A stretch of 64,000 nt of DNA from positions 26,233,629 to 26,297,628 of the forward strand of contig NC_092384.1 of the NCBI RefSeq assembly GCF_030028105.1. Direction: 5' to 3'. Below the pieces are notes generated by a model. That model saw only the letters and a program-made list of their open reading frames with translations, was not told the DNA's origin and searched no databases. The DNA comes from Mobula birostris. Its lineage: Eukaryota. Of the stretch, positions 2,346-39,011 are shown one piece after another. The position numbers were made by a program, and so were the translations under genes. Position 1 is the stretch's first letter, and each line of letters starts with the position of its first letter.

Positions 2346-2387
2346 CGTCAGAGTGACGTTGAAGTTAATAAATCCAGTCGATATAAA
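2346..2387 (+). promoter_or_regulatory. Putative AgRP copy 1 core promoter: CRE half-sites (CGTCA 2346-2350, TGACG ~2354-2358) and TATAAA 2382-2387
   Basis: TATA lies ~105 nt upstream of a donor cag|GTAAAT (2492/2493). The intron ends at cctgcag (2664), 5 nt before the ATG, consistent with a short non-coding first exon. Confidence 0.55.
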
Positions 2388-2669
2388 CTAGGAACTGTGA
2401 ACACAGGAGTTCAAAAAAGAATAGCAGCTCTCAGCAACCACCGACTGGGGAAGGAAAAAGTTCACTTTCACTTCATGAGCTGTTCCTTGCAGGTAAATGG
2501 AGATTATTAAATCAAAGTGATTTCTGAGATCCAACTTCAGCAGATGCGTTATACGCTGATGATAGAGAGAGTAGGGTTATTGCTCAGTGTATTAATAGAA
2601 ACAGATTATTTTTCTTGTGGTGGGGTGTTGCTGCCCTGCTGAGTGTTGTGCCATTATCCTGCAGGTATC

Positions 2670-2826
2670 ATGGTTAATGCCATGCTGCTCTACTGCTGTG
2701 CTCTACAGCTCATTCTCTGCTTCGGTGCCATCAGAGCTGAACTGGATTCCAACGCCATTAGAGATGTGACCACAAATGCCGACTTTACATCCCTGAGCAG
2801 GGGCAAGACCCTATTTTCTGCTGCAG
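2670..2826 (+). CDS. agrp: Agouti-related protein copy 1, coding exon 1 (signal peptide)
   Basis: MVNAMLLYCCALQLILCFGAIRA... hydrophobic signal; 157 nt; phase-1 donor gcag|GTGGGT. Confidence 0.88.
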
Positions 2827-3550
2827 GTGGGTATTAACCATCTCCATTTAATTCTGCACTCTCTGCATTAATCCTGGTCTGAGGCTCTCAGCGTGACTAA
2901 TTATCTACTGCTTCAGTCGCAGTTGACTGTTGCATTTTATCCAAGAATATTGAATGGATTTATGACTCCAGTGGGAGAGCGTGGTACAGGGTCCACATAG
3001 GAAACCTACAAAAATATATTTCACTGGAAGAAAAATAAGTGACCAGCTCTTGTTTAAAGTGAAGCCAATACTCTCATTCAATGTACATAGGCAGTTTGTT
3101 AGAGTAGTCTCTAATTAGCAATGTAGAACTCATTTTGGATATCCCTGACATTACACCCAGAACATACTTCTGTTGTGCTCTGTCACCTTTAGAAATAATT
3201 TACTCTTAAACCTCACTTTACCATTAAGTGAGTCTCCTGTATGGCTGAGAGTCTGTTGGAGATTGAGTGCCTTTCTATTGTCTCTTATTCTTTGTTCTTA
3301 CAGTTCACTCTGTCAGTTTTGTTTGTCAGTACTCACTTAATTCTTCGGTTCTTCTCCAAACTTCTGGGGAATGTTAATGTGGTAGAACACAAATCCTTTG
3401 AGAAAGAAAGAGAATGGTTTGTGCGGCAGCCTTTATTTTAGGTCAATATTATTGCCATCTACCAAGTCACCATTTCATGCACTGAAATTTAATGTTTGCA
3501 TGAACAACAGGATAGACATTTGACGAATTCTGTTAATGTTGTGAATTCAG

Positions 3551-3618
3551 GTCCACTGACTAAACCCACATTGGAAAAAGAACATCAAATGTCAGAAAAG
3601 ATTATGCTCAAATCTGAG
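3551..3618 (+). CDS. agrp: Agouti-related protein copy 1, coding exon 2
   Basis: ttcAG|gtcca...tctgag|GTAAAT; 68 nt; phases join exons 1 and 3 in frame (GPLTKPTLEKEHQMSEKIMLKSE). Confidence 0.8.
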
Positions 3619-4397
3619 GTAAATCCAGTTTTTATATAGTATCGTTCCAAAGGCAGAGTGACTGATATCCAGCAAACTGATTAAGTTTTAATTACATTTC
3701 AAATTTGACTTTTTATAACAAATATTGTAAAATATAATACGATTTAAAGCTGAAGCATCAGCAGTTCAATTAAATTCTGTTATTCACTGTTCTGGCCCAA
3801 CATTAGTACACAATCATCTGCTATTTAATATTTAGGATTCTTTAATATGAATTGTGCTTATTTAATATAAAATTGTTTCTTAGTTAAAATAAATGAAAAT
3901 TATGAATGAGGAAATATTCTCACACAGTTTTTAATCCCAACGTCACTCTGACATTGGGGTACCTTAGGTGTTTCTGCGATCATGTTCTGTCCTCTCCAGC
4001 ACCAGCAAGACCTGCATTTTTCAGCCTCAACTAATCTGTTATGAGGACATTTCTGTTGCCTTGTGTTTCTTAAAGCAGAGTAAGCTGGAGACATCTGCCT
4101 ATTGACAGGCTTAGCTCTGCTGAATGCCAAGACACCCTCCTTACCCGGGCTAGCCCAGGTTGGTTTAACCACTCCCTGACTTATGTATGGAAGAGGTAAT
4201 GCTGGTTTACATAGTCCCAGGGTTACAGCATTATATCTCCTTAAAGAACGAGGAGACCACTTGGCTCACAGGGTATATAGTTGGTAGTCCATGCTTAAAT
4301 GTTAAATGCGACTAGTTGTTCTTGTTGCAGAATTGGAGAAATTGAAAATGGTATGTGACATTTCATATTCTGTAAACTTTAACATTTTCCCTTACAG

Positions 4398-4586
4398 CTG
4401 ATGTTTGATGTAGTCGAGATGGATAGATCAGAGCATTCGCCCGGGAGATGCGTTCGACACCTAGAGTCCTGCTTTGGCCATGCTCTACCTTGCTGTGATC
4501 CATGCGCCATTTGTTACTGCAGATTCTTTAATGCTATTTGTTACTGCAGGAAAATCGGTAGTGACTGTGACCAGGGCAAGAACTAG
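4398..4586 (+). CDS. agrp: Agouti-related protein copy 1, coding exon 3 (10-Cys inhibitor cystine knot with RFF); total CDS 137 aa
   Basis: RCVRHLESCFGHALPCCDPCAICYCRFFNAICYCRKIGSDC has the AgRP C-x6-C-x6-CC spacing, the RFFN loop and a C-terminal extension; acceptor cttacAG; AATAAA at 4691-4696. Confidence 0.95.
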   Translation: MMFDVVEMDRSEHSPGRCVRHLESCFGHALPCCDPCAICYCRFFNAICYCRKIGSDCDQGKN

Positions 4587-6289
4587 CTTTGTACTTGTTC
4601 TCTCTGTTGACAACTTTTCTGTTTTAGATATAAACAGATTTATATTACGTTATGTTGCTTTCCATGTGCAACTTGTAAGTTTGCAGTTGAAATAAACATT
4701 TTACTTTGATGAGAAGGACAAATTTGCAGTGGAGTGCAGCCCAGCCCAGCTCAGCTCTTAATTTAGTGTGAGAGAGTCATAGAGCACTACAGCCTAGAAA
4801 TAGGCTCTTCAGCCCATCTAGTCCATGCCAAACTGGTCTTCTGCCTAGTCCCTAAACCATAGCCCTCTATACCCCTCTTATCCTTGTACCTGTGCAAACT
4901 TTTCTTAAACTCCTGTTGTGATAGGAAATAATGGATCTACCAGTAATTTGTCACAAATGCCCCAAAATTTCTAATGACAGAGAGAATTTGGTGATTTATT
5001 TGTCTAATTTAAAGCTCAATTTTTACCATACGGTTAAAGGGCGATTACAAAATTCCTTAAATTTGCTACCAGTTATTTGGGGGGAGGTGGAGGACTCTGT
5101 TACATTTTGTAGAATACAAATGTATTACACAGGAGTGTCTTTCTTTGCACTTTGAACAGAAACTTTAACCATGTCTACTTAAATAAACAATGTAATTTCA
5201 ATTCTGCAATATCGCACCAATTAAAAATTTAAATATTGTTCATCTTTAGTTGATAGCGATGACCTAGAGGGCACTCATGTTGCTGAAATATACTTCTGCT
5301 TGCGGAAGCTGCTTCTAGATTCTCAGTCTGGTACAAATTTAGGACCTGAGATTGATTATCTCATGGGTTTGGCATTACCGATTTTCAACCTGTTGAGTTC
5401 CTCCAGCCTGTTGTGAGTGGTGTTTTGACCCCAGCATCTGCAGATTATTTTGTGTTCTGAGGGAGAAAAGCCTGCTTGCATTTAACCTATCTATACCTTT
5501 CATAATTTTGTACACCTCTAGCAAATCCCCCCACATTCTCCTATGCTGCTAACTTATTCACTCTTTCCCTATAACTCATATATTACTTAGATTTATTAAT
5601 AACTTATAATTCCAGACAGGCCTTAAAGAACAACACAGGTTCAGAATTCATGTTGAAGAAGTACATTTATTTTCATTTGCATTTCACATGTTGATTTGCA
5701 CTTAGTTGTCAGCAATGGTGCTATCGATCCAGTCCCTCAGCTCCGTCACGCGGGCATAGACACCAGGAGTGCTGGTGGAGCAATAGCCACTGCCCCAGGA
5801 AACGATGCCAACCAAGTTCCAGACGTTGTCCTTCTGACAGACAAGTGGGTCGTCAGAGTCACCCTGTAAACGAGTCACAGCCTCAGACTTGGTCTCATTG
5901 CCTTTTTGCAACTTGAAAGAGGTTGAAGTACTTTGAAAAGGTTTCATACCATGCAAGACGAGGCACCAGCTGCCCCAGCGCAGATCATGACATCGGTGAC
6001 ACTGCTACCCCAGTAGTTCCTGCAGTTCACGTTGGAGAGGAGCGGAAGAGCAGCTTGCTGAAGTTGGTTAGGTCGCTCAGCAGCTGTGGAAATGTTAGAT
6101 GATACTTCAATCAGTTTTGCTTTATTTTTAAGGGTCATACTCCAATGAAAGTAAAAGGGTATATTTTCAGCCATTAGAAACCTTTTATAAACCTACTGAT
6201 TGACTATACCTCTTTCCGGCCTGTCTCCCTTTTCTCAGTTCTTGTGCTTCCACTGTATCTATTGCCAGGATAAGGCTTTTCTTTCCAGG

Positions 6290-7915
6290 ACAGGGAGGAG
6301 GTGAACGGCGAGGTGTAGCATTTCTGTTGCATGCAGGGATATGTGAGAGAGACTAGTGGGGAGGGCTGAATGGACAAAGGAATCATGGAGGGAGCAATCC
6401 CTATGAAACGCGGATAGTGGGGGAGGGGGGGTAAAGATGTGTTTGGTGCTAGGATCCCACTGAAGATGTGGAGAGTGGAGGGAAGGTAACGATGTGTTGG
6501 TGGTAGGATCTCTTTGCAGACGGCGGAAGTTGTGGAGAATGATGCGTTGGGTGCAGTGGCTCATGAGGTGACAGGTCAGGACAAGAGGAACTCTATCCCT
6601 GTTCAGGTGGCAGGAAGATGGGGTGGACGTGGATGTCCGGGAAATGGAGGAGATGCAGGTGAGGAAGAGAAACCCTGTCCTTTGTCCTTATCCCTGGGAC
6701 AGATGCGACAGAGGTGAAGGAACTGAGCAAAGGGAATGGCGTTTTTACAGGAGATCGGGTGGAAATAGTATCGTCAAAATAGCCGTGGGAATCACCAGGT
6801 TTATAAAAGATGTCAGTAGATAGTTGGTCTCCAGAGATGGAGACAGAGAGATCGAGAAAGGGGAAGGAGGTGTCAGAAATGGACCAAGTGAATTTAAGGG
6901 TAGGGTGGAAGTTGAAGGCAAAGTTTATGATATTGATGAGCTCAGCATGAAGGTGTGAAGCAGCATCTGTGCAGTTGTCAATGTAGTGCAGAAAGAATTG
7001 GGGAGTTTGACCAGAGAAGACTTGGAACATGGACCGCTCTACGCAGCCAGTGAAAAGGTAGGCGTAGCTGGGGCCCATACAGGTACTCACGGCTACCCCT
7101 AGAGTTTGGAAAAAGTGAGAGGGACCAAAGGAGAAATTGTTAAGGGTGGGGACCAGTTCTGCTAGACAAGAAGGTATTGATGGAGGGGAACTGGTTGGGT
7201 CTTTTGGAGGGAAAAATACAGAGAACTTTAAGGCCTTCTTGATGGGGGATAGAAAGTTATAGGGACTGGACATCCATGGTGAAAATGAGGTGGTCACGGC
7301 AGGGAATTGAACATTATTGAGGAGATCGCAAGCATGAAAAGTGTTGCTGTGTTGATCTGGGAAAGGACTGGACCAAGGGGGATATAATGGAGTTGAGGTA
7401 TGTGGACATGAGTTCAGTGGGGCAGGAGATGGCAGAGACAATGGTCTTACTCGTACAGTCACGTTTGTGGATCTTGGGTAGAAGGTAGAAACAAGCATTG
7501 CGGGTTAAGGAAACTATCAGTTTGGTGGCAGTGAATGTGAGATCAATGATGGCGACACTGAGGGTCCAGAATATGGTCCTTTTCAAGGAGGTGTCTTGAG
7601 AGTTTCCGACTGGTATCAGCAAGGTCGAGGTCAGTCTGCCACTCAGCAATAGCACCCCCTTTGTCTGCAGGTTTGCTGGTAAGGTTGTGGTTGGTGTGGA
7701 GAGAGTGGCAGGCAGTGCATTCAGAGGGAGTAAGGCTGGAGGAGGAGGAGAGGAGTGCTGAAATTGTGGCAGTTGATGTTTCATTGGGAATTACAGATGA
7801 AAAGATCTGGAGGTGGCAGAGAACCAGAGCGGGATGTCCAAGAGAAGGTGTAGGATTGGATATGGGAGGAGGGGCCATTGGTGCAGTGGACTGAGGGCCT
7901 GACAATGGAGGGGGC
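6290..7915 (-). mobile_element. Degenerate Penelope-like retroelement fragment in chymotrypsinogen A intron 5
   Basis: KPADKGGA, FYLLPKIHK, MGPSYAYLF, HYIDNC, FHPTLKFTWSIS, PFLDL: Penelope-type RT motifs, frameshifted. Confidence 0.85.
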
Positions 7916-7919
7916 AAAA

Positions 7920-12593: not shown

Positions 12594-12956
12594 AAAAAGA
12601 TTGTTCTGGAAGACCAAATCAGCTGGCCTCAGCCCTAGTAAGTGCTAAACTCTCCGGAGACATACAGTATACAGTCACCTTGCAACACACACAAAATGCT
12701 GGAGCATCTCAGTAGGTCAGGCAGCATCTATGGAGGGGAATAAAGAGTCGATCTTTCAGGCTGAGACCTTTCATCAGGATTGGAAAGGAGAGGGGAAGAA
12801 GCCAAATGAGAAGGTGGGGAAGGAGTACAAGCTAAAAGGTGATAGGCGAAGCCAGGGTGAGGGGGAAGGTGGGTGGCGGAGGGGCGGAATGAAGTGAGGA
12901 GTTTGTAGGTGGATAAGGCAAAGGGCAGTAGGAGAAGATATTTTTGTTTTTTGATT
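12594..12956 (+). other. Templated insertion copied from ~15398-15742 into chymotrypsinogen A exon 3
   Basis: Near-identical direct copy (aaagattgttctggaagacc...ggagaagatat), plus short filler and loss of 12 exon nt (WVVT). Confidence 0.92.
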
Positions 12957-21977: not shown

Positions 21978-22177
21978 TGCTGGGCACGTGGACTCAAGGT
22001 CACAAATTTGAGCCTCAGCTGTGGCAGCGTGGTTTGTGCCTTTGAGCAAGGCACTTAATCACACATTGCTCTAGTCTGTGCGAGGAGTGGCGCCCCACAC
22101 AGGCTTCCAATCTGCGCCTTGTAAGGCATGAGAATGCCCGACGCAGGCCTCTCAAGGTCTGAGTCGACGTTCCCCCC
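21978..22177 (+). mobile_element. CORE-type SINE inserted in the 5'UTR of chymotrypsinogen copy B
   Basis: Absent from copy A (ataagctcaccATG). Flanked by taagct/taagtt, and contains CORE-like ctttgagcaaggcacttaa. Confidence 0.75.
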
Positions 22178-22414
22178 TAAGTTCACCATGGCGTTTCTCT
22201 GGCTTCTCTCCTGCTCCGCTTTCATTGGGGTCACCTATGGTAATATCACTTGAAATTAGAATTCTAGTTTTAACCATTGGAACAGAGGGTGCCGTGTTGA
22301 ATGCAATTAGCAACATTTACATAGAGCAACTGCTTCTCTCCACCCAGGTGCAGGCTGCGGATCTCCAGCCATCACCCCGGTTCTGTCAGGCTACAGTCGA
22401 ATTGTCAATGGTGA

Positions 22415-23658
22415 ACAATCAGCAGCCATGGGCTCTTCTAAGCAGCTGCCTAGAACTCTGAAAATTAAAATAAATGATGCCCACAAAGCAGGAAAAGGCT
22501 ATAAGAAGATAGCAAAGCGTTTTCAGGTAGCCGTTCCCTCAGTTCGTAATGTAATTAAGAAATGGCATTTAACAGGAACGGTGGAGGTCAAGTTGAGGTC
22601 TGGAAGACCAAGAAAACTTTCCAAGAGAACTGCTTGTAGGATTGCTAGAAAGGCAAATCAAAACCCCTGTTTGACAGCAAAAGATCTTCAGGAAGATTTA
22701 GCAGACTCTGGAGTGGTGGTGCACTGTTCTACTGTGCAGCGACACCTGCACAAATATGACCTTCAAGGAAGAAAAACTTTCCTGCGTCCTCACCACAAAA
22801 TTCAGCATCAGAAGCTTGCAAAGGAACATCTAAACAAGCCTGATGCATTTTGGAAACAAGTCCTGTGGACTGATTAAGTTAAAATAGAACTTTTTGGCCG
22901 CAATGAGCAAAGGTATGTTTGGAGAAAAAAGGGTGCAGAATTTCATGAAAAGAACACCTCTCCAACAGTTAAGCACGGGGGTAGATCGATCATGCTTTGG
23001 GCTTGTGTTGCAGCCAGTGGCACGGGGAACATTTCACTGGTAGAGGAAAGAATGAATTCAATTAAATACCAGCAAATTCTGGAAGTAAACGTCACACCAT
23101 CTGTAAAAAAGCTGAAGATGAAAAGAGGATGGTTTCTATAACAGGATAATGATTCTAAACACACCTCAGAATCCACAATGGACTACCTCAAGAGGCACAA
23201 GCTGAAGGTTTTGCCATGCCCCTCACAGTCCCCCGACCTAAACATCTTCGAAAAACTGTAGGTAGACCTCAAAAGAGCAGTGCATGTAAGACGGCCCAAG
23301 AATCTCACAGAACTAGAAGCCTTTTGCAAGGAAGAATGGGTGAAAATCCCCCAAACAAGAATTGAAAGACTCTTAGCTGGCTACAGAAAGCGTTTACAAG
23401 TTGTGATACTTGCCAAAGGGGGTGTTACTAAGTACTGACCATGCAGGGTGCCCAAACCTTTGCTTCAGGCCCTTTTCCTTTTTTGTTATTTTGAAACTGT
23501 TAAAGATGGAAATAAAAAAGTAATCTTACTTAAAATATTAAAGAAATGTGTCATCTTTAACTTCATGCCTTTTGGAAATCAGGTCATCTTTTACTCGCTT
23601 AGCTATTCACAGTAACAGAAATTTTGACCAGGGGTGCCCAAACTTTTGCATACCACTG
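22415..23658 (+). mobile_element. Tc1 (DD34E-type, IR/DR) DNA transposon; left end deleted, transposase carries internal stops
   Basis: ORF 22428-22877 (HTH domains, GRPRK, WTD) continues past stops as VKHGG, QDND.KH, SPDLN..E to ..TKY* at 23438. Direct repeats gggtgcccaaac at ~23446 and ~23632; terminus cactg-TA. Confidence 0.93.
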
Positions 23659-24263
23659 TATTTAGAATAGGCCCTTCCAGCCCTTCGAACCACATTGCCC
23701 AGCAACACTCGATTTAACCCTAACCTAATCACTAGACTCACCAGCTGGTGGCATAGTGGCATCAGTGCTGGACTTCAGCGCAAAGGCTCCCAAGTTCGAA
23801 TCCAGCCGGCTCCCTTGCACGCTTTCCATCCATGCTGGGTTGAACGTCCAGCTAGCAACTTGGCTTTGTAAAAATACGAAAGCCTTAGAACTGTTGAAAT
23901 TGCTACAAAAGGCCAAATAATTCTGTATTTATATTGCATCCTGTTTGGTTAATAGACACAGTAATGGGCAATACTTGCTGCTCTTTGCCCAAAAGGTGAA
24001 GTTATATGAAGAGCTGTCTCTGCTCATTCCTGTTTGACAGATTAAAAAGTAAATATGTTTGCATTCCAGTTTTAAAACAACAGGATTATTTTCTTTAAAT
24101 AATCCTGTTTTGCCTTCAGTCACCACAACTCTCGAAAAAATTATCTATTTTCCTAATTTTGAATATTACAGAGGTTTTCCTGAAGTGTCTTTCATTTGTC
24201 GGAAAGTGAACTCAATGCCATTGTTTGGGGTGCACAGTTTCCCTCTCTGTCCCACCCAGTCTA

Positions 24264-24306
<43 letters not shown>

Positions 24307-27300
24307 TCTCTCTCTTTCTCACCCTCTCTCTCTCTGTCTCACTCTCACTCTCTCGCACTCTCTTTCTCACCCTCTCTCTCTGTCTCTCTTGTTTCTGTCA
24401 ATTAATTTTTTATCTGTCCTAATATATGTTTGTCTGTTTTTATTTAACAAGCTTCACGTGAATTACTTTCTTAAAACCTTGATGTAATATAGACTTTCTA
24501 CAATATGCTACTAAATCACTATTTATCTTCAACAAATCCAAGCTGGCTATTCTCAATTAATGTATTTCTGAATTCTTACTAATTGTGGGAAATTATAAAT
24601 TCTCAGAGTTGATCCTTAAATGTCCTCATACCAGTTGGTTTATGATTACTTGGCCTATCTTTCTCTATCCTTTGATTAGTAATTCTCCAGTGCTAAATGG
24701 CAATTTGAATACTAAGATTACATCATCCTCCTTTACAAATTATTTCGACTGCATGGAGCTTCCTGATTCCTTCATTTTAGAACTGCTCCCTTCCTGCAGT
24801 GACATATCCCTCTGTGTAGCATCCAGATTCTCATTCCATTAGTACTTGCATCATATAATCCAGTGCTTAATATCTTGCTGCCATTTCATCTTGCACAATT
24901 CATCTCCATCTCTCCTCTCAGATTGGTTCCAGGCTCTCTTTACTTTAAATATTCTTCAGGAAAATAGCTTATATCCCCATAAACTTCCTTACATTATCTT
25001 TTATTCATTTTTCAAACTCCCTTTAAGCAATTCTTATCCAACTTTTCAGATTTCCACATCATTTTCTAAATCCCACTTAACTGTTCTTGGTATTACAGTA
25101 TTAGCCCTATTTCTAATCATATGTTTCATTTAAAATTAAAGTTTAGTTTTACAGTAGTTATTTATTGCAACTTTAGAACTTTGCTCTTCAACGAATTTCT
25201 TTGAATTCATGATCCAATGACGTTCGATAACTTCCTTGTTATATTATGAGTCTTGTTTCCTTTTATCCAATTTGCAATCTGGAGTCACTGTCAACTTTCA
25301 ATAAAACTACTTCTGTATGGTGGAGGAAAACTTAAGATGTTTTTATGGTAATACTGAGCATTCTTTTTCCTCGTGTAACAGAGTGACTCTGGTCGGCATT
25401 TCCGCGGCAGTTCCTTGATCAATGAAAACTGGGTTGTCACCGCTGCACATTGTGGCATGAGGTAAGTCTTAACACCTACAAAGAGAGAAAGAAATGTGCT
25501 GGTGAATCCTTCTCTAATTCCTGAGGGATGATGCAGCTTTAACTGATATTTTTGTTCAAAGTGATATATGAGGCAAAGAAAAATTGCTCTTGTGGGCATG
25601 AACATTGACTTAACGAGGGAAGATCCTTGCATGAATAGTTTGGGAAATCGTTGACTGGAAAGTACAATTTTCACTCCACCCCCACCCCCACCCCTGATGA
25701 AGTTTGGAGTTGCTGGTATCTTGCAACAAGCAAACTCTGTCACTGCTTTTGTTTTTCTTTTGTCACATACAGTACGAACGACTTTGCTATTGTTGGTGCC
25801 CATCACAAAAGCTCAAAAACTGAAGCCAGCCAGAAATCCATGTCCATTGCTAAGGTACGTATCTCCCTGTAAAACTAGGAATTTGTTTGAATTCAGGTCA
25901 AATTTGGGCTACAGTACTGTTAGGATCCAAAATGATGTGCAGAGATGGATGCCATACAGACAGAACACAGGATCTTAGTAAGGGGTGTCCATTACCGAAA
26001 GTGGTTTCAATCTCCAATATGAATATGCCTCGCCATGATAAACTTCATAGCACCAAGAATAGAATCACTAGATATTGATAACAAGCAAAAGCAAGAATTA
26101 TTTCAGGTGCTGCTGAAGATGATAAAAGATTGTTACACATCACCTCCCTCAGGCGTTGGGGCCCCAGTTCTAATCAGATTAATTTTCCTCTGCACTAGCC
26201 CCAATACCCTGACACATGGGCCTTCCAGCAATAAATGTTACTTGCAGTGTAGTAAGTGAAAAGACAAACTCAGTCATAAGGACAGACATGAAGCAAACAG
26301 ATTAGACATTTCATGTTGGAATGCATGGCATAGAGTGGCCATTGATCCTGGCGTCCTGTTCACTAAGGGTTGCCTGTAAAGCCCATCAAGGAATTTGATA
26401 ATGTGTGGGTTGGTATAAGGTCCAGTCTTTGGGATGTATGCCAGAATGCCAGTGTCTGATATGGCCGCACACATGGTAACGTTTGAACCTCTATAGATTG
26501 GTAGCAGGACTGGCACCCTTTTCTCTACATGATTTGTCCTTTGTCTCCTTGTCTTAGATAAGGTTGGGGTATCAACAGATTACCAACGATTGCTTAATTC
26601 ATTGCATTTTGAGTCAATGATTTGGGATTGATTGCTGACACTTCTGAATGATTTTTGCATCTTCTTTTTGTCTTCCGACCACCGTTGTGTCCTGGTGTCG
26701 AGTGGTTTGCAAGAAGTTCATTAGCATTTGAGACAGATGTACATGCAATGAGAAATTGTTGTCTATTGTGCTGAGGTGATTGCTGTTTTGCTCATATAGA
26801 GTTTAGAAATGAGTACATGAACTGCTGGCTTGATTGAAGTGTCTAGGCAACTGAAAAAAAACTAATTATCCCAAAAAAGTTAATCAAATTCAGAAAGGAA
26901 AAACTGAAGAAGTTTTATACAAGATGACAGCACCAGTGTAATGGTAAACCACAGAATACAGCCACTTATTTCCACTTCCAGCTTGTAAGTCTATTTATTT
27001 TTCTTTAAATTGCTGACTTTGTTTTCTAATGAAGGGCTTTTGAATTCTATTTTGAATAAGCAATTCCCCATTCATGAGTGCAGCTGCATTGACATGAAAT
27101 CCAGGAGAGTCTGAAGTTATCGGTCTCAAGCAAGTGCCAACTCTAAAAGATGAGTACTAGGCACAGCCATCATCCATGTTCTCTCTGTTACAGGTCATTA
27201 CACACCCCAAGTGGAACCCCTCCACCATTAATTATGATGTTTCTGTGGTGAAGCTTGCAACCCCCGTTCAGTTCAACAGTCATGTGTCGCCAGTCTGTCT

Positions 27301-27699
27301 CGCCGCTGTATCTGATAACTACCCTGCTGGCATGATGTGTGTCACAACGGGATGGGGAAGGACTCGTGCTTACCGTACGTCAGTTCAAAACTTTACAAAT
27401 TACAGTGTTGCAGTTCCGAGCTCTGTGCCTTTGTACCCTTACCCTGACAGGGAGCAGTGGATAGATTCCCAAGATGATTGGCAATCTGGAAGGTTATGCT
27501 ATGAATAATACTTCATGGCTGCATGGTCAAGGAACAGGATAATTCTGTTCATCAGAGGGATATTGTGGGCTTCTACAACTGATCCAGTGATAGGGTGTTC
27601 ACAGTGTCATATAGATTGGAAATGGGTCCTTCTGCCCAATTGGTCCAAGCAGACTAAGATACCCCATCCAATTTAGTGCCATTTGCCAATGTTTGGCCC

Positions 27700-27920
27700 A
27701 TAACTTTCTAAACCTTTCCAATCCACAGACTCATAGCCTTCCAAATCTTTCAAAACCATAGACCCATAATCTAACTCTTTCCAATCCATGGACCCATAAC
27801 CTTCTAAACCTTTCTGATCCATGGACCCATATCCTTCTAATCCTTTCCAATCCATGGTCCCATAACCTTCAAAACCTCTTTAATGCATGCATCATAACTT
27901 TCTAATCCTTTCCAATCCAG
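27700..27920. repeat. ~33-bp minisatellite derived from the CR1 3' end (~7 units; ~4 units at 9100-9230 and 46310-46435)
   Basis: Repeated ccatggacccataaccttctaaacctttccaat-like unit; ORF 27673-27855 shows periodic MDWKGLEGYGS. Confidence 0.8.
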
Positions 27921-30900
27921 GTACCTGTCCAACTGTCTTTTAAAAGTTGTCATTTTATTTGCCTTACCACTTCTTCTGGTAGCTGATTCTGCATAGATAC
28001 CACCCTTTGTGGAACGAAAAAGGTTGTCTCTCAAGTTTCTTTGAAATCTTTCCACTCTCACCTTAAACCTATGCCCTCTTGGTCTTGATGTCCCAACTCT
28101 GGGGAAAAAGATGGAATACATTCACCCTATCTTTGCCACTCATGATTTTATACCTCTCCATAAGATCATCTTCAGTCCTCTATGCTGTAAGGAATAAAGT
28201 CCTAGCCTCTTCAACCTCTCCCTATAATTCAGTTATTCAAATCCTGGCAACATCCTTATAAATCTTTTTTATACCTCTTCCAGTCTAACAACACCTTTAC
28301 TACAGCAAAGCGACCAAAAATGAATACAAATTCCAAGAGCAGTCTTACCAGCATCCAATACAACCACAACATGACATGACTTCCCAACTTCCCTACTCAT
28401 TGGTCTGAGAGATAAAGGCCAGTGTGTCAAAAGCCTTCTTCACCTCCTCACCTACCTGTGACTTGCACTCTGCTCTACACCACTCCCCAGTGCCCTGCCA
28501 TTCACTGTGAAAATCCTACCTGGATTTGACTTTCCAAAATATAGCACTTCATATTTATCTGAATTCAATCCAATTTTCCACTTTTTGCCCCATTTACCCA
28601 GTTGATCAAGATCTGCCTGTAATTTTTGATAACCCTTTTCCATTGTCCACTATACCACCTGCTTTAATGTTGAATGCAGACTTATTAACCGTGCCTTGCC
28701 CAGATTATTATCCAAATCATTAATAAACAATGGGCTCAGCACAGCCCCTGAGGCACACTATTTGTCATGTGTTTCTAGTCCAATAAGCAACCTTCTACCA
28801 TCACCCTTTGCTTTCTACCATCAAGACAATCATGTATCCAATTAGCCAGCTCTCTCTGCATTCTATGTAATCTCACCTTCCGGAGCAGCCTACCATGTGG
28901 AACTTAATCAAAGGCCTCACTGAAGTCCATAGAAACTAGATCTACCACCCTCCCCTCATAGACTTTCTATGACACATACTCAATCAAGTTCGTAAGACAT
29001 GATCTCCCATGCACAAAACCATACTGATCTAATCAATTCCTGACTTTCCAGATTGACATATATTTTGTCTCTCAGAATCCTTTCCAGTAACTGACAGATG
29101 TTAGGCCTACTGCTTTATAGTTCCCAGGTTTTTCTTTGCCCTCTTCTTAAATAAAGGCACAACATTTGCTACTCTCCTGTCTACTGTCTCCTCAGTTGTG
29201 GCTAACGATGATGCAAATATCTCAGACAAGGCTCCCACAATTTCTTCTCTAGTTTCCCATAGTCTTCTCTGATAAACCTGGTCAAACCTGTTGATTTGTC
29301 TACTTTCCTACCTTTTAAGTCATACAGCACCCTTCTACTGTAATGCAGACTATCCCCAAGACAACTCCATTTAAATTTCTTAGTTGTTAAGTCTTCATGC
29401 AACTCTCTATGGGAAAAAAAAACAGAGGAGAGATATTCATTAAGGACTTTGCCTGCCTCCTGTGGCTCCACACAAAGATATGTCCCTGTGATCTTTGAGG
29501 GGCCTTATTCTGTTTCTATGTTAATATACTTATACAATCACTGTAGAATTTTGTTAATACTCTCTGTCAAAGTTCCCTCATGCCCCCTGTTTGCCCAATA
29601 TCCCTCCAGAGATTTACTTGATCCCAGCTGCTTGTACCTAACCCATGCCTCCTTTTCTCCAGGGTCAGGGCCTCAATATCCCTCATTATCCAATGTTCCG
29701 TACTCCTGCCTGCCTTGCCCTATGCTCCAACAGGAACATGCAGGCTTTGAGCTCTCACTAGATCACATTTAAAAGACTCCCACTTACCTGTGGGCTCTGT
29801 GCCAATAAACTACCTACTCCAAACAATCGCTGTATCCTCCTGTCTCATACTGTTAAAATTATCCTTGCCCCAGCTTAGAACTTGAACCTGTGGACCAGTT
29901 CTGTCCCTTTCCATAACCCTTTAATAACTAATAGAACTATAGTCACTGGTCCCTAATTGCTCCCTCAGTGTCTCCTTCCTAAGTCTAGGTCGAGTTTTGG
30001 CCTCTCCATTGTCGGACCCTCAGTATACTGTCCAAGGTATCTTCCTTGAAATCACCTTAAGCCCTTAACTGTATGTATGTTCCTCAGTATTTTAGGAAAG
30101 TTTAAATCTCCTTCAAGAATACTCCTATTATTCTTGCATCTCTCGACAATCTCCCTGCATGTTTATTCCTCTACTTCCCGTTCACAATTGGGAGGCCTAT
30201 AGTACAATCCCAACATTATTTCTCGGCTCCACCCACAAAGCCTCACTGGACGATCCTTCAATAAACCACAAACCTGATGCAGTCTGTCCATTCCAGAGTC
30301 ATTTGTCGGGTACTCGACTTGAACATCAGCAAAGGTAAATTTTCAAAGAAACAGCAACTTAGAGATATATGGTCATCAATCAATTTGTGCTGACATTGGA
30401 AAACATAGTTTTTAACAGATTGTGGAAAGAATTCCTGAGTTAGCTTCTTGCTTTATTTGTTTTAACATAATATTATTGCATCATAGGATAACTTCACTCA
30501 CCTCAACTCTGAACTGATACCACACTCACTTTCATGGACACTGAAATCATATATTCTGTATTTATTTATTTGTTTATTTATTTTTGCACAGGTTGTTTTC
30601 CTATGCACAGTGGCTATTTGTATTTGTTAATGTAGCTTTTTCATAAATTCTATTGTACTTGTAAGTGCCCGCAAGAAAAATGAATCTCAATTTGGCACAC
30701 GATGACATATACGTACGAACTTTCATGATAAATTTACTGACACGTTGACTTTACTTTTAATCAGACTGAATCAGTTATATGGAGGAGAGAAGCAAATCCT
30801 AGGGGCCTAGATAGAGTGCCGTGGACAGGATGTTTCCTAGAGTGGAGGAGTCTAAGAGCAGTGGGCTCAGGCTCACAATACAAGAATGCTCCTTTAGAAC

Positions 30901-30924
30901 AAGGATGAGGAGGAAATTCTCTCC

Positions 30925-31740
30925 AACCCCAGGCCTCTCAGAATCCCCCGTCACTTTTTGGGACTTCAGAGCCACCATCTTCTTCCCACCCTACCTTCCC
31001 AGAACACCCTAACCCTCCACCAACTCCCCAACTCTTTCTGCACTACATTGACAACTGCATAGATGCTGCCTCACACCTACATGCTGAGCTCATCAATTTC
31101 ATAAACTTTGCCTTCAACTTCCACCCTACCCTTAAATTCACTTGGTCCATTTCTGACACCTCCCTCCCCTTTCTCAATCTTTCTGTCCCCATCTCTGGAG
31201 ACCAACTATCCACTGGCATCTTTTATAAACCTGGTGATTCCCACGGCTATCTTGACGATACTATTTCCACCCGATCTCCTGTAAAAACGCCATTCCCTTT
31301 GCTCAGTTCCTTCACCTCTGTCACATCTGTCCCAGGGATAAGGATAAAGAACGGGGTTTCTCTTCCTCACCTGCATCTCCTCCATTTCCCGGACATCCAC
31401 GTCCACCCCATCTTCCTGCCACCTGAACAGGGATAGAGTTCCTCTTGTCCTGACCTGTCACCTCATGAGCCACTGCACCCAACGCATCATTCTCCACAAA
31501 TTCCGCCGTCTGCAAAGAGATCCTACCACCAACACATCGTTACCTTCCCTCCACTCTCCACATCTTCAGTGGGATCCTAGCACCAAACACATCTTTACCC
31601 CGCCTCCCCCACTATCCGCGTTTCATAGGGATTGCTCCCTCCATGATTCCTTTGTCCATTCAGCCCTCCCCACTAGTCTCTCTCACATATCCCTGCATGC
31701 AACAGAAATGCTACATCTCGCCGTTCACCTCCTCCCTGTC
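30925..31740 (+). mobile_element. Internally deleted Penelope-like fragment, intron 5 of copy B
   Basis: Matches 6290-7010 and 45060-45155 in inverted orientation. Confidence 0.75.
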
Positions 31741-33445
31741 CTGGAAAGAAAAGCCTTATCCTGGCAATAGATACAGTGGAAGCACAAGAACTGAGAAAAG
31801 GGAGACAGGCCGGAAAGAGGTATAGTCAATCAGTAGGTTTATAAATGGTTTCTAATGGTTGAAAATATACCCTTTTACTTTCATTGGAATATGACCCTTA
31901 AAAAAATAAAGCAAAACTGATTGAAGTATCATCTAACGTTTTCACAGCTGCTGAGCGACCTAACAAACTTCAGCAAGCTGCTCTTCCTCTCCTCTCCAGC
32001 GTGAACTGCAGGAACTACTGGGGTAGCAGTGTCACCGATGTCATGATCTGCGCTGGGGCAGCTGGTGCCTCGTCTTGCATGGTATGAAACCTTTTCAAAG
32101 TACTTCAACCTCTTTCAAGTTGCAAAAAGGCAATGAGACCAAGTCTGAGGCTGTGACTCGTTTACAGGGTGACTCTGGCGGCCCACTTGTCTGTCAGAAG
32201 GACAACGTCTGGAACTTGGTTGGCATCGTTTCCTGGGGCAGTGGCTATTGCTCCACCAGCACTCCTGGTGTCTATGCCCGCGTGACGGAGCTCAGGGACT
32301 GGATCGATAGCACCATTGCTGACAACTAAGTGCAAATCAACATGTGAAATGCAAATGAAAATAAATGGACTTCTTCAACATGAATTCTAAACCTGTGTTG
32401 TACTTTAAGGCCTGTCTGGAAATATAAGTTATTAATAAATCTAAGTAATATATGAGTTATAGGGAAAGGGTGAATAAGTTAGCAGCATAGGAGAATGAGC
32501 GGGGATTTGCTTGAGGTGTACAAAATTATGAAAGGTATAGATAGGTTAAATGCAAGCAGGCTTTTCTCCCTCAGAACACAAAATAATCTGCAGATGCTGG
32601 GGTCAAAACACCACTCACAACAGGCTGGAGGAACTCAGCAGGTCGAAAACTGGTAATGCCAAACCCATGAGATAATCAATCTCAGGTTCTAAATTTGTAC
32701 CAGACTGAGATTCTAGAAGCAGCTTCCGCAAGCAGAAGTATATTTCAGCAACATGAGTGCCCTCTAGGTCATCGCTATCAACTAAAGATGAACAATATTT
32801 AAATTTTTAATTGGTAAGATATTGCAGAATTGAAATTACATTTCTTTCTTCTGTTTATTTAAGTAGACATGGTTAAAGTTTCTGTTCAAAGTGCAAAGAA
32901 AGACACTTCTGTGTAATACATTTGTATTCTACAAAATGTAACAGAGTCCTTCACCTCCCCCCAAATAACTGGTAGCAAATTTAAGGAATTTTGTAATTGC
33001 CCTTTAACCGTATGGTAAAAATTGAGCTTTAAGTTAGCCAAATAAATCACCAAATTCTCTCTGTCATTAGAAATTTTGGGGCATTTGTGACAAATTACTG
33101 GTAGATCCATTATTTCCTATCACAACAGGAGTTTAAGAAAAGTTTGCACAGGTACAAGGATAAGAGGGGTATAGAGGGCTATGGTTTAGGGACTAGGCAG
33201 AAGACCAGTTTGGCATGGACTAGATGGGCTGAAGAGCCTATTTCTGGGCTGCAGTGCTCTATGACTCTCTCACACTAAATTACAAGCTGAGCTGGGCTGC
33301 ACTCCACTGCAAGTTTGTCCTTCTCATCAAAGTAAAACGTTTGTTTCAACTGCAAACTTACAAGTTGCACATGGAAAGCAACATAACATAATATAAATCT
33401 GTTTATATCTAAAACAGAAAAGTTGTCAAGAGGACAACTACAAAG

Positions 33446-33634
33446 CTAGTTCTTGCCCTGGTCACAGTCACTACCGATTTTCCTGCAGTAACAAATAGAA
33501 TTAAAGAATCTGCAGTAACAAATGGCGCATGGATCACAGCAAGGCAGAGCATGGCCAAAGCAGGACTCCAGGTGTCGAACGCATCTCCTGGGCGAACGCT
33601 CTGATCTATCCATCTCCACTGCATCAAACATCAC
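33446..33634 (-). CDS. agrp: Agouti-related protein copy 2, coding exon 3
   Basis: VMFDAVEMDRSERSPRRCVRHLESCFGHALPCCDPCAICYCRFFNSICYCRKIGSDCDQGKN*; acceptor cttacAG intact. Confidence 0.93.
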   Translation of the reverse strand: MMFDAVEMDRSERSPRRCVRHLESCFGHALPCCDPCAICYCRFFNSICYCRKIGSDCDQGKN

Positions 33635-33738
33635 CTGTAAGAGAAAATGTTAAAGTTTACAGAATATGAAATGTCACAACACACATCAAAGTTGCTGGTA
33701 AACGCAGCAGGCCAGGCAGCATCTGTAGGAAGAGGCGC

Positions 33739-33774
33739 AGTCGACGTTTCAGGCCGAGACCCTTCGTCAGGACT
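33739..33774 (-). ncRNA. Minimal type I hammerhead ribozyme motif (Penelope terminal repeat), sense to AgRP copy 2 pre-mRNA
   Basis: AGUC-CUGACGA-AGGGUCUCGGCCU-GAAA-CGUC^GACU: conserved core, stem I AGUC/GACU, stem II AGG/CCU, palindromic ACGU stem III. Confidence 0.75.
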
Positions 33775-36002
33775 AACTGAAGGAAGAGTGAGTAAGGGAT
33801 TTGAAAGTTGGAGGGGGAGGGGGAGATCCAAAATGATAGGAGAAGACAGGAGGGGGAGGAATGGAGCCAAGAGCTGGACAGGTGATTGGCAAAAGGGGAT
33901 ACGAGAGGATCATGGGACAGGAGGTCCGGGAAGAAAGACGGGGGGTGGGGGGACCCAGAGGATGGGCAAGAGGTATACTCAGAGGGACAGAGGGAGAAAA
34001 AGGAGAGTGAGAGAAAGAATGTGTGCATAAAAATGAGTAGCAGATGGGGTACGAGGGGGAGGTGGGGCCTTAGCGGAAGTTAGAGAAGTCGATGTTCATG
34101 CCATCAGGTTGGAGGCTACCCAGACGGAATATAAGGTGTTGTTGCTCCAACCTGAGTGTGGCTTCATCTTTACAGTAGAGGAGGCCGTGGATGGACATGT
34201 CAGAATGGGAATGGGATGTGGAATTAAAATGTGTGGCCACTGGGAGATCCTGCTTTCTCTGGCGGACAGAGCGTAGATGTTCAGCAAAGCGGTCTCCCAG
34301 TCTACATCGGGTCTCGCCAATATATAAAAGGCCACATCGGGAGGAAGGGAAGCCCCTTTCTTTAAAAAAGGAAGACATCTCCCTCGTCCTAGAATGAAAA
34401 GCCTCATCCTGAGAGCAGATGCGGCGGAGACGGAGGAATTGCGAGAAGGGGATGGCGTTTTTGCAAGAGACAGGGTGAGAAGAGGAATAGTCCAGATAGC
34501 TATGAGAGTCAGTAGGCTTATAGTAGACATCAGTGGATAAGCTGTCTCCAGAGACAGAGACAGAAAGATCTAGAAAGGGGAGGGAGGTGTCGGAAATGGA
34601 CCAGGTAAACTTGAGGGCAGGGTGAAAGTTGGAGGCAAAGTTAATAAAGTCAACGAGTTCTGCATGCGCGCAGGAAGCAGCGCCAATGCAGTCATCGATG
34701 TAGCGAAGGAAAAGTGGGGGACAGATACCAGAATAGGCACGGAACATAGATTGTTCCACAAAGCCAACAAAAAGACAGGCATAGCTAGGACCCATTCTTC
34801 GGCTCTTCAACTTTTCGACCACACTTTGACTACTGACTCTCACAGCTATCTGGACTATTCCTCTTCTCACCCTGTCTCTTGCAAAAACGCCATCCCCTTC
34901 TCGCAATTCCTCCATCTCCGCCGCATCTGCTCTCAGGATGAGGCTTTTCATTCTAGGACGAGGGAGATGTCTTCCTTTTTTAAAGAAAGGGGCTTCCCTT
35001 CCTCCACTATCAACTCTGCTCTTAAACGCATCTCCCCCATTTCACGTACATCTGCTCTCACTCCATCCTCTCGCCACCCCACTAGGAATAGGGTTCCCCT
35101 GGTCCTCACCTATCACCCCACCAGCCTCCGGGTCCAACATATTATTCTCCGTAATTTCCGCCACCTCCAATGGGATCCCACCACTAAGCACGTCTTTCCC
35201 TCCCCCCCCTCTCTGCATTCCGCAGGGATCGCTCCCTACACAACTCCCTTCTCAATTCGTCCCCCCCATCCCTCCCCACTGATCTCCCTCCTGGCACTTA
35301 TCCGTGTAAGCGGAACAAGTGCTACACATGCCCTTACACTTCCTCCCTTACCACCATTCAGGGCCCCAAACAGTCCTCCCAGGTGAGGCAACACTTCACC
35401 TGTGAGTCGACTGAAGTGATATACTGCATCCGGTGCTCCCGATGTGGCTTTTTATATATTGGCGAGACCCGATGCAGACTGGGAGACCGCTTTGCTGAAC
35501 ATCTACGCTCTGTCCGCCAGAGAAAGCAGGATCTCCCAGTGGCCACACATTTTAATTCCACATCCCATTCCCATTCTGACATGTCCATCCACGGCCTCCT
35601 CTACTGTAAAGATGAAGCCACACTCAGGTTGGAGAAACAAAACCTTATATTCCGTCTGGGTAGCCTCCAACCTGATTGCATGAACATCGACTTCTCTAAC
35701 TTCCGCTAAGGCCCCACCTCCCCCTCATACCCCATCTGCTACTCATTTTTATGCACACATTCTTTCTCTCACTCTCCTTTTTCTCCCTCCGTCCCTCTGA
35801 ATATACCTCTTGCCCATCCTCTGGGTCCCCCCCCCTTGTCTTTCTTCCCGGACCTCCTGTCCCATGATCCTCTCGTATCCCCTTTTGCCAATCAACTGTC
35901 CAGCTCTTGGCTCCATCCCTCCCCCTCCTGTCTTCTCCTATCATTTTGGATCTCCCCCTCCCCCTCCAACTTTCAAATCCCTTACTCACTCTTCCTTCAG
36001 TT

Positions 36003-36038
36003 AGTCCTGACGAAGGGTCTCGGCCTGAAACGTCGACT
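36003..36038 (+). ncRNA. Minimal type I hammerhead ribozyme motif (second arm of the Penelope element)
   Basis: agtc ctgacga agggtctcggcct gaaa cgtc gact. Confidence 0.75.
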
Positions 36039-36909
36039 GTACCTCTTCCTACAGATGCTGCCTGGCCTGCTGCGTTCACCAGCAACTTTGATGTGTGTTG
36101 CTTGAATTTCCAGCATCTGCAGAATTCCTGTTGTTTGCATGAGTCACATACCATTTTCAATTTCTCCAATTTTGCAACAAGAATAACTAATCGCATTTAA
36201 CATTTAAACATGGACTACCGACTATATACCCTGTGGACCAAGTGGTCTCCTCGTTCTTTAAGGAGATATAATGCCGTAAACCTGGGACTATGTAAACCAG
36301 CATTGCCTCTTCCATACATAAGTCAGGGAGTGGTTAAACCAACCTGGGCTAGCCCGGGTAAGGAGGGTGTCTTGGCATTCAGCAGAGCTAAGCCTGCCAA
36401 TAGGCAGATGTGTCCAGGTTATTCAGCTTTAAGAAACACAAGGCAATATTCGGCTTTAGAAACACAAGGCAACAGAAATGACCTCATAACAGATTAGTTG
36501 AGGCTGAAAAATGCAGGTCTTGCTGGTGCTGGAGAGGACAGAACATGATTGCAGAAACACCTAAGGTACCCCAATATCACAGTGCCGTTGGGATTAAAAA
36601 TTGTGTGAGAATATTTCCTCATTCATAATTTTCTTTTATTTTAACTAAGAAACAATTTTATATTAAATAAATACAATTCATATTAAAGAATCCTAAATAT
36701 TAAATAGCAGATGATTGTGTACTAATGTTGGGCCAGAACAGTGAATAACAGAATTTAATTGAACTGCTGATGTTTCAGCTTTGATTTGTATTATATTTTA
36801 CAATATTTGTTATAAAAAGTCAAATTTGAAAAGTAATTAAAATTTAATCAGTTTACCAGATATCAGTCACTCTGCCTTTGGAACGATAATATATAAAAAC
36901 TGGATTTAC

Positions 36910-36977
36910 CTCAGGATTGGGCATCATCTTTTCTGACATTTGATGTTCTTTTTCCAATGTGGGTTTAGTCAGTGGAC
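36910..36977 (-). CDS. agrp: Agouti-related protein copy 2, coding exon 2
   Basis: 68 nt, GPLTKPTLEKEHQMSEKMMPNPE; AG/GT sites intact. Confidence 0.8.
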
Positions 36978-37702
36978 CTGAATTCACAACATTAACAGAA
37001 TTCATCAAATGTCTATCCTGTTGTTCATGCAAACATTAAATTTCAGTGCATGAAATGGTGACCTGGTAGATGGCAATAATATTGACCTAAAATAAAGGCT
37101 GCCACACAAACCATTCTGTACCTTTCTCAATGGATTTGTGTTCTACCACATTAACATTCCCCAGAAGTTAGGAGAAGAACCAAGAGAATTAAGTGAGTAG
37201 TGACAAACAAAACTGACAGAGTGAACTGTAAGAACAAAGAATAAGAGACAATAGAAAGGCACTCAATCTCCAACAGACTCTCAGCCATACAGGAGACTCA
37301 CTCAATGGTAAAGTGAGGTTTAAGATTAATTTATTTCTAAAGGTGACAGAGCACAACAAAAGCATGTTCTGGGTGTAATGTCAGGGATATCCAAAATGAG
37401 TTCTACATTGCTAATTAGAGACTACTCTAACAAACTGCCTATGTACATTGAATGAGAGTATTGGCTTCACGGTAAACAAGAGCTGGTCACTTATTTTTCT
37501 TCCAGTGAAATATATTTTTGTAGGTTTCCTATGCGGAACCTGTACCATGCTCTCCCACTGGAGTCATAAATCCATTCAATATTCTTGGATAAAATGCAAC
37601 AGTCAACTGCGACTGAAGCAGTAGATAATTAGTCACGCTGAGAGCCTCAGACCAGGATTAATGCAGAGAGTGCAGAATTAAATGGAGATGGTTAATACCC
37701 AC

Positions 37703-37859
37703 CTGCAGCAGAAAATAGGGTCTTGCCCCTGCTCAGGGATGTAAAGTCGGCATTTGTGGTCACATCTCTAATGGCGTTGGAATCCAGTTCAGCTCTGATG
37801 GCACCGAAGCAGAGAATGAGCTGTAGAGCACAGCAGTAGAGCAGCATGGCATTAACCAT
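37703..37859 (-). CDS. agrp: Agouti-related protein copy 2, coding exon 1
   Basis: Reverse complement of 2670-2826; no differences seen. Confidence 0.88.
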
Positions 37860-39011
37860 GATACCTGCAGGATAATGGCACAACACTCAGCAGGGCAGCA
37901 ACACCCCACCACAAGAAAAATAATCTGTTTCTATTAATACACTGAGCAATAACCCTACTCTCTCTATCATCAGCGTATAACGCATCTGCTGAAGTTGGAT
38001 CTCAGAAATCGCTTTGATTTAATAATCTCCATTTACCTACAAGGAACAGCTCATGAAGTGAAAGTGAACTTTTTCCTTCCCCAGTCGGTGGTTGCTGAGA
38101 GCTGCTATTCTTTTTTGAACTCCTGTGTTCACAGTTCCTAGTTTGTATCGACTGGATTTATTAACTTCAACGTCACTCTGACGCCATCACTGAAATGGGA
38201 TTTGGATCCACCTTTAGCAATGTTTCTTTAAAGTCACCTAATTTCGTTTCATGTTAGTCCTGACTGAATGAATAGCATTCTCAGTCAGAAAGCTGTACAT
38301 TTGAGTCCTACTGCAGAGATCTGAGCACAAAATCCAACATGCCACTTTAGTACAATGCTGAAGAGCAGTGAACTATTAGAAGTCTTTTTTTTCCATAAGG
38401 CATTAATTCCATTTCAGGTCACAGGGTATTATCTGATGTGTTCTTCCCAGGCTCCTGAGTTGACCCAAGTTGTCCATGCCAGACAAGAAATTCATTTACA
38501 CTTTGGCCCTCATCCTGTCCTACACATCAACCTGTCCAAATGCTTCAAGAATGCTGGGATTGCATCCATCTCTACCTTCTTTTCCAGAGGCCCATCCACA
38601 TATTCACCACCCCGTGTGAAAAACATTCTCCTCAGATCTCCTTTAAACCTTTCCTTCCTCGCTTCAATCCATGTCCTGTAGTTTTAGAGTCCCCTACCTC
38701 TGGAAAAGTGCTGTGACTGTACCCAACCTCATCCCCTCATTCTTTCATAAACCCTTCAGATTGCTGCACTCCTGTGAGGACAATCCCAGCCTATCCAATT
38801 TTTCCTTATAACTAAAGACCTTCATTCCAGGGAACATCATGATGAACACCTCCTTCCTTCTTTCTGGAGCTGTTGCAATATCTGATAATAATGAGTGTCT
38901 ATTGTTGATGAGGTTGGGGGTCATTCACATTCTTGTGCTGATGTAGCAAATGCTATCAATTTCAGTGCTCCCACAGCTGATACATTAGTTAGTAATAGTT
39001 TTAACAGTTTT

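Follow-up and report, generated by a model that had tools for sequence, protein, structure and literature searches.

Altered promoter and polyadenylation signals in a duplicated AgRP gene of Mobula birostris, and their probable origin in the decay of spare copies

An array of AgRP and chymotrypsinogen units

We analyzed a window of 64,000 nucleotides from contig NC_092384.1 of Mobula birostris (GCF_030028105.1, positions 26,233,629-26,297,628 of the forward strand), which lies within a Mobula-type array where AgRP–chymotrypsinogen units have been duplicated, and asked what the sequence differences between its two AgRP genes mean. AgRP units 1 and 2 are inverted copies of each other: positions 1-4359 align to 40538-36143 and positions 4354-7007 to 33678-31022, at about 96% identity. 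Each AgRP copy encodes a 137-residue protein with intact GT/AG splice sites at its coding exons. The Agouti domain (PF05039) was recognized in both with 58.5 and 58.9 bits against a Pfam cut-off of 27, and a pattern match found the C-x6-C-x6-CC knot and the RFF motif in both. This knot defines the AgRP1 type in the accessible part of PMC3397983. The window copies are like vertebrate AgRP of this type in their three coding exons, signal peptide, knot, RFF motif, and 10 cysteines, but differ in that there are at least three copies in this one genome, copy 1 lacks the convertase site, and copy 2 has a Ser in its loop along with altered signals.

The copy 2 protein is identical to residues 12–148 of the M. 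birostris RefSeq record XP_072135589.1. The second M. birostris AgRP record, XP_072135242.1 (P0124), shows 9 and 6 differences from copies 1 and 2, respectively, and because it matches neither, the species must have at least three AgRP copies. Exon 4 of copy 1 was found in no protein record among the best 120 of 204 matches, the cluster members, and a short-protein search, the last of which returned 2 matches from 3 candidates, none from a ray. The AgRP cluster, all six members of which were read, holds two records from M. birostris, two from M. hypostoma, and one each from Hypanus and Hemitrygon; for chymotrypsinogen the corresponding numbers are four, two, one, and one. A third copy of the AgRP upstream flank (63038..64000, + strand), 2.9% and 3.2% diverged from copies 1 and 2, is truncated by the end of the window, and a further AgRP unit may lie beyond it. 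Just before it, at 63002-63038, the 3' flank of a chymotrypsinogen gene (copy D, below) turns into the AgRP upstream flank within a repeat fragment, which is a candidate rearrangement breakpoint. Our literature search, which left most subscription journals outside its coverage, showed no title or opening of an abstract on AgRP amplification in Mobula among the papers listed. RefSeq already lists two of the AgRP copies, and the type of event is well known.

The TATA box and the 5' region

The first-pass annotation of this DNA had contrasted an intact copy 1 with a copy 2 attenuated by point mutations in its TATA box and polyadenylation [poly(A)] signal. All four hexamers read as claimed, with TATAAA at 2382..2387 (+) against TACAAA at 38142..38147 (-) and AATAAA at 4691..4696 (+) against AACAAA at 33340..33345 (-), and the flanks, described there as near-identical, are indeed homologous at about 96%. 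The copy 1 hexamer is a probable TATA box, although its box, TATAAACT, has two mismatches to the TATA-box consensus TATAWAWR. If the CA dinucleotide at 2412-2413 is taken as the putative start, the first T of the hexamer stands at -31, a placement read by the usual spacing rule between TATA box and transcription start. The hexamer region aligns with the upstream part of AgRP from the electric ray Narcine, an N-terminal extension in that gene model (P0010; tblastn E = 0.007), and the alignment is gapless over the first 36 codons with 'YK' at the position of the hexamer. Since the Narcine gene model reads through the same region, the placement of the TATA box is probably right, and by this alignment the change in copy 2 probably falls in a conserved promoter.

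Upstream of the box are two half sites (CGTCA and TGACG; 2346..2358, +), which we take to be cAMP response element (CRE)-like and which are the same in copy 2 (38183 and 38175). Downstream, a putative non-coding exon 1 of copy 1 spans 2413..2492 (+), with the donor GCAG/GTAAAT and Narcine homology ending at 2489; in copy 2 the -3 base of the corresponding putative donor (38037..38039, -) is changed from C to T. Four of the 24 runs that a run search listed, none of them on record as RNA, were aligned (X1, X5, X15, and X20; tissues not given), all as contigs, which drop minor paralogues and report presence only, not starts, ends, strands, or levels. No contig of the four runs was placed on the putative exon 1 of copy 1.

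Boxes with the same T>C change at TATA position 3 are known from UCP1 of horse, bats, and panda and from rabbit uteroglobin, where activity is lower but not zero. According to the accessible part of PMC5611445, the TACAAAAG box had 76-85% lower activity and the uteroglobin box 7-fold lower activity, and other proteins can compensate. Because TACA boxes are reported to be weaker (PMC5611445), lower output from the proximal promoter of copy 2 is likely. Those TACA-box genes are single-copy and still expressed, whereas the Mobula change sits in a spare duplicate. The two grounds for calling TACAAA the derived state are the consensus and the main contig of X1: TACAAA is absent among the displayed variant rows, and the sole X1 contig at this position reads TATAAA (139 rows were undisplayed, and contigs drop minor variants).

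There are also signs of a different 5' end. Relative to the copy 2 frame, XP_072135589.1 has an 11-residue N-terminal extension, and exact 5- to 9-mer, fuzzy 9-mer, and donor-anchored searches found its first 9 residues encoded nowhere in the window. The best candidate for an extension exon was identical at only 5 of 9 residues and was not accepted; the extension may be a prediction artefact. An X20 contig of 340 bases covers exon 2 from acceptor to donor (2664-2828) with 0 differences and adds 164 bases on its 5' side that come from outside 2150-5400. Although X20 is flagged as probably DNA, the contig ends coincide with splice sites, so the 164 bases joined at the exon 2 acceptor may represent a second start or an alternative first exon.

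Polyadenylation signals and spliced transcripts

The AACAAA of copy 2 was also read in a contig of the DNA run X1, possibly the assembly's own sample. A T at this base, giving AATAAA, was found in the DNA run X5, which carries another organism label, and in the RNA run X15, and since both carry T we consider the C of copy 2 to be derived. Both AgRP copies have further signals downstream. In copy 1, a distal AATAAA (5182) and ATTAAA (5220) lie at 5182..5225 (+), with UGUA upstream and a more U-rich downstream region than that of the proximal signal (downstream T fraction 0.38 and 0.37 at the distal sites versus 0.23 at the proximal one). In copy 2, the same two signals are intact at 32806..32859 (-), with AATAAA at 32859-32854 and ATTAAA at 32811-32806, about 490 and 530 bp downstream of AACAAA. 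These distal signals had been overlooked in the first-pass annotation, as had an A>G change 2 bp past the proximal signal.

The only fully spliced contig came from X15. It crosses both coding introns, has N-P-K at the joint of exons 3 and 4, and shows a single difference in exon 2 and another in exon 3. Across 4396-5093 it has 38 differences and 12 gap bases, while copies 1 and 2 differ there by 23. By sequence, it fits the third paralogue (P0124) and not copy 1 or 2. Because this contig skips the whole of intron 3, some apparent small exons in that intron were rejected. A 7-base deletion at 5030 is common to this contig and one of the two X5 contigs, a hint that the split of the two organisms came after the first duplication.

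The X15 contig also bears on where the transcripts end. It keeps the proximal AATAAA and continues for about 400 nt past it to 5093 (there was no RNA cover over 5202-5400), crossing on its way the tail of a high-copy repeat at 4766-4890 within the long AgRP 3' untranslated region. This is one contig of a paralogue in one run, and contigs reveal neither ends nor the shares of different ends, but it speaks to the possibility that the real poly(A) sites lie elsewhere, which the first-pass annotation had named as a way to refute its proposal. Its claim that AACAAA abolishes cleavage is accordingly weak, with an intact AATAAA and ATTAAA remaining downstream and an RNA contig running past even an intact proximal signal. 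The same base change is known as a thalassaemia allele of HBB, and the accessible part of PMC8092010 reports that AACAAA lowered the output of an HBB reporter after a strong downstream vector signal had been removed, and that the patient's read-through transcript possibly stops at a cryptic downstream signal. In contrast to that construct, copy 2 has intact signals within about 530 bp, and its proximal signal may not be the principal one. On the evidence of the X15 contig, the effect of AACAAA is probably buffered, with 3' ends shifting to a distal signal that is seemingly used anyway.

Coding changes in copies 1 and 2

The coding exons of copy 1 lie at 2664..2826 (exon 2, with the ATG at 2670 and the signal peptide; the splice joint 2823-3548 is seen in X15), 3551..3618 (exon 3), and 4398..4586 (exon 4 coding sequence), all on the + strand. 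Those of copy 2 lie on the - strand at 37703..37865 (exon 2, with the ATG at 37859), 36910..36977 (exon 3), and 33446..33634 (exon 4 coding sequence). Exon 2 is identical in the two copies, so the exon 2 polymorphisms that were to tell the paralogues apart in RNA sequencing do not exist. Compared with other rays, copy 1 has six derived changes (M70I, N73K, and P74S in exon 3, then A80V, R88H, and R91G) and copy 2 has three (L72P in exon 3, then L76V and A121S).

Two of the changes in copy 1 (R88H at 4435 and R91G at 4443) replace arginines of the convertase site. Among 138 knot-pattern homologues (of 139 examined; best matches and their cluster members rather than a random sample), R91 is kept in 138/138 and R88 in 133/138, the other five having an Arg one place earlier. 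The pro-region of copy 1 exon 4 has no R-x-x-R and no dibasic site, while the convertase site of copy 2 is present; the cystine knot of copy 1 is intact. H88 and G91 are also read in an X1 contig (4333-4555), which differs from copy 1 only at 4487. Uncleaved AgRP has lower potency. According to the accessible part of PMC3519472, cleavage of human AgRP follows Arg79-Glu-Pro-Arg82, and AgRP conserves the two arginines while ASIP and AgRP2 do not; processing of AgRP by PC1/3 is described in PMC6928319. Our literature search returned no data on convertase-site mutants of AgRP. The picture of an intact copy 1 beside an attenuated copy 2 thus does not hold, copy 1 having lost its convertase-site arginines and the sole fully spliced contig coming from a third paralogue.

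In copy 2, A121S (33499) turns the loop RFFNA into RFFNS. This Ser stands at the position of ASIP Ser121, which AgRP Ala115 mirrors in receptor structures; the Ala115 contact is main-chain (accessible part of bioRxiv 10.64898/2026.09.03.748715), so we expect little effect of the Ser. One marsupial AgRP, among the 138 homologues, also has Ser at this position. Changes in the AgRP loop can alter receptor pharmacology according to the part of a review that was accessible (PMC9369360). M. hypostoma XP_062923496.1 (P0004) has RFFKA for RFFNA (N120K), the sole such change in the 138. The two M. hypostoma AgRP proteins differ at 2 residues and share A112T, which suggests conversion or a separate duplication.

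Teleost AgRP2/ASIP2 (A2) genes are also extra members of the family, and in the accessible part of PMC3519472 AgRP2 is without the processing arginines, like copy 1. However, A2 genes are ancient, with a C-x6-C-x5-C knot and other synteny (accessible part of PMC3397983), whereas the Mobula copies are young local duplicates, both with the x6 spacing in place of the A2 knot.

Copies 1 and 2 differ by 9 amino-acid and 3 silent changes, giving a ratio of nonsynonymous to synonymous differences per site (pN/pS) of 0.89. Divergence is 5.9% in exon 3, 4.2% in exon 4, and 4.5% in intron 3; because the local intron divergence is equally high, we do not claim positive selection on the pro-region of copy 1. 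AgRP copy 2 itself has no frame-breaking lesion and no lost coding splice site, which are among the marks of an unprocessed pseudogene.

The reciprocal lesions of the two copies could reflect a division of labour, in which copy 1 would supply an uncleaved, full-length, ASIP-like AgRP from the canonical promoter and copy 2 a cleavable peptide with the ASIP-like loop Ser, made from an alternative upstream exon that renders the TATA box dispensable. The unencoded residues of XP_072135589.1 and the outside bases that X20 joins to an exon 2 like that of copies 1 and 2 are consistent with this, as are the Ala115–Ser121 correspondence, the M. hypostoma duplicate with its own loop change, and the view that ASIP-like peptides without the two arginines are not processed (accessible part of PMC3519472). 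We regard such a division as improbable, since pN/pS is near 1 on 12 changes and a Ser at a main-chain contact, found in a marsupial AgRP too, should be tolerated, while the X20 contig is not assignable to copy 1 or 2 and the extension may be an artefact.

Divergence between the copies and the role of chance

Overall, copies 1 and 2 differ by 205 substitutions in 6998 aligned bases (2.9%). At this divergence, a substitution is present in 15.3% of 6-mers, and both hexamers would be altered in 2.3% of cases and both on one copy in 1.2%. Four of the 16 TATAAA hexamers of copy 1 are altered in copy 2 (two of them overlapping), and 3 of the 11 AATAAA hexamers of copy 2 are altered in copy 1. Two altered signals on one copy are nominally unusual, but they were selected post hoc, and altered hexamers are common here.

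The core idea of the first-pass annotation, that copy 2 is attenuated in expression, can be extended to a selected damping of dosage, in which excess AgRP would be harmful and copy 2 would be damped at the transcript level and copy 1 at processing. Each spare is altered twice in one function, copy 2 in its cis signals and copy 1 in its near-invariant arginines, and the published reductions for TACA boxes and for AACAAA in the HBB reporter (accessible parts of PMC5611445 and PMC8092010) point the same way. We nonetheless find selection for lower dosage unlikely. The changes were singled out post hoc, coding sequence and introns have diverged equally, the neighboring genes decay likewise, the distal signals buffer the poly(A) change, and neutral decay predicts the same lower output.

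A tract of 462 bp that covers exon 2 (2519..2980 and 37549-38010) is identical in both copies, a length reached in 1 of 20000 permutations (mean longest run, 191), and is probably due to gene conversion. Intron 3 of copy 2 carries a repeat-derived insertion of 2464 bp (33679..36142), missed in the first-pass annotation, with 665-bp inverted arms (97.4%) and a 6-bp target duplication. It contains an inner 176-bp inverted pair and, at 35556, a single ATTAAA on the strand of the gene. In the pre-mRNA, the insertion could form a long hairpin that affects splicing of exon 4.

The region is repetitive, and with TACAAA absent from the displayed rows it could be asked whether both signal changes arose as errors of assembly, or whether the copies are two haplotypes that were placed next to each other. 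We think this very unlikely. X1 contigs (possibly from the assembly's own sample) also read AACAAA, the copies are 2.9% diverged, lie in opposite orientations, and have copy-specific insertions, and there are two AgRP records from another Mobula species as well.

Chymotrypsinogen neighbors and the antisense proposal

None of the four chymotrypsinogen genes in the window is whole, each being broken or partial. Copy A (XP_072135244.1; 5702..15001, -) has its exon 3 interrupted by an insertion just before the catalytic His and reads GDSDDP for GDSGGP. Copy B (22188..32329, +) has an exon 2 that breaks off after the first 70 of its 112 bases, with the end and the donor missing, and a Cys to Arg change in exon 3. 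The interruption is a Tc1/mariner-type transposon with stops (22416..23658, right end approximate, +; PF01498 and PF25787); it breaks the frame and marks copy B as a pseudogene. The missing 116-bp segment of copy B occurs elsewhere in the window only in copy A. Copy C (41037..48776, -) retains only exons 3-6 (without 1, 2, and 7) and has the exon 3 Cys to Arg change, and copy D (XP_072135322.1; 54671..62757, +) retains only exons 3, 4, 6, and 7 (without 1, 2, and 5). An intact 264-residue chymotrypsinogen record exists and differs from all four.

A 200-bp insertion (21978-22178) is directly 5' of the copy B start codon, and copy A is without it. A 346-bp repeat is found at 12596-12941, within exon 3 of copy A, and again at 15398-15742 and 21247-21585 (99.7% and 96% identity); these copies are a sign of recent mobile activity.

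Copy B had been proposed as the target of antisense read-through from AgRP copy 2, about 1 kb away. The distance is correct, its stop codon lying 1011 bp from AACAAA, and the layout is convergent; AACAAA does give read-through in HBB (accessible part of PMC8092010). The regulatory role itself is extremely unlikely. Two intact signals intervene (the poly(A) signal of chymotrypsinogen lies 489 and 441 bp beyond them), the neighbor is already broken in exon 2, and a weakened promoter would yield little RNA. Moreover, AgRP is mainly hypothalamic and chymotrypsinogen pancreatic. No meaningful antisense effect is expected.

Origin of the changes

The explanation we favor, with moderate confidence, is relaxed decay: duplication and amplification in Mobula, relaxed selection on the spare copies, and a third copy that does the work. 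A single ancestral tail-to-tail AgRP–chymotrypsinogen pair would have been duplicated in the Mobula lineage, and further amplification would have proceeded by tandem and inverted duplication. A paralogue outside the window, of the XP_072135242.1 type, would keep every functional motif and yield the main spliced transcript that was seen. Copies 1 and 2 would be younger spares under relaxed selection, altered at an approximately neutral rate, copy 1 by loss of its pro-peptide cleavage site and copy 2 by TATA>TACA, AATAAA>AACAAA, the loop Ala>Ser, and the 2.5-kb intron insertion. We infer that TACAAA probably weakens the proximal promoter and, from one contig, that AACAAA probably only moves 3' ends to the distal signal. 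Relaxed decay is favored because pN/pS is 0.89 and divergence in the exons keeps pace with that in the adjoining intron. The paired AgRP records of both Mobula species against single ones in Hypanus and Hemitrygon, the four damaged chymotrypsinogen neighbors, the lost arginines of copy 1, and the X15 contig point the same way. The sequence changes, the broken neighbors, the third paralogue, and the near-neutral coding divergence are shown by the data, whereas expression levels, start and end sites, and a lack of selection are inferred.

Several observations weigh against this explanation. Neither AgRP copy has lost its reading frame, a coding splice site, or any of the 10 cysteines, and only 1 of the 9 amino-acid differences falls in the knot domain. 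The chance of finding both signals altered on the same copy is 1.2%, and 12 coding differences give little power. A gene of the copy 1/2 type also seems to be transcribed, judging from the exact exon 2 match of X20.

Birth-and-death decay in segmental duplications, with gene conversion, is well known. The Mobula array likewise has inverted and tandem units, partial copies, transposon insertions, and a homogenised tract, but its unit includes a neuropeptide gene for which the records read from other rays show just one copy.

Implications for AgRP in Mobula and the agouti family

The sequence changes are real, their cause is ordinary, and the interpretation given to them in the first-pass annotation is half right. 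Under relaxed decay, the locus would be a clean case of the decay of spare copies of a normally single-copy appetite gene. It also carries a warning, since annotation (copy 2 recorded, copy 1 not found) and inspection of motifs may together indicate the wrong 'main' copy. The more interesting residue lies in the uncleavable copy 1 and a possible promoter switch. These genes provide natural variants of AgRP, one without a convertase site and others with Ser or Lys in the RFF loop.

If copies 1 and 2 did divide their roles, Mobula would show agouti-family diversification in progress. In a stronger form of that idea, which we consider improbable, manta-type rays would have split AgRP into three ligands. 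Beside a canonical one there would be copy 1 as an uncleavable full-length form and copy 2 as a loop variant moved to an alternative upstream promoter, with decay of the TATA box and proximal poly(A) signal that it used before. If true, this would be a young re-run of the shift from AgRP to an ASIP-like peptide, possibly with peripheral or pigment roles, in a genus where a second species has altered the same receptor-binding loop.

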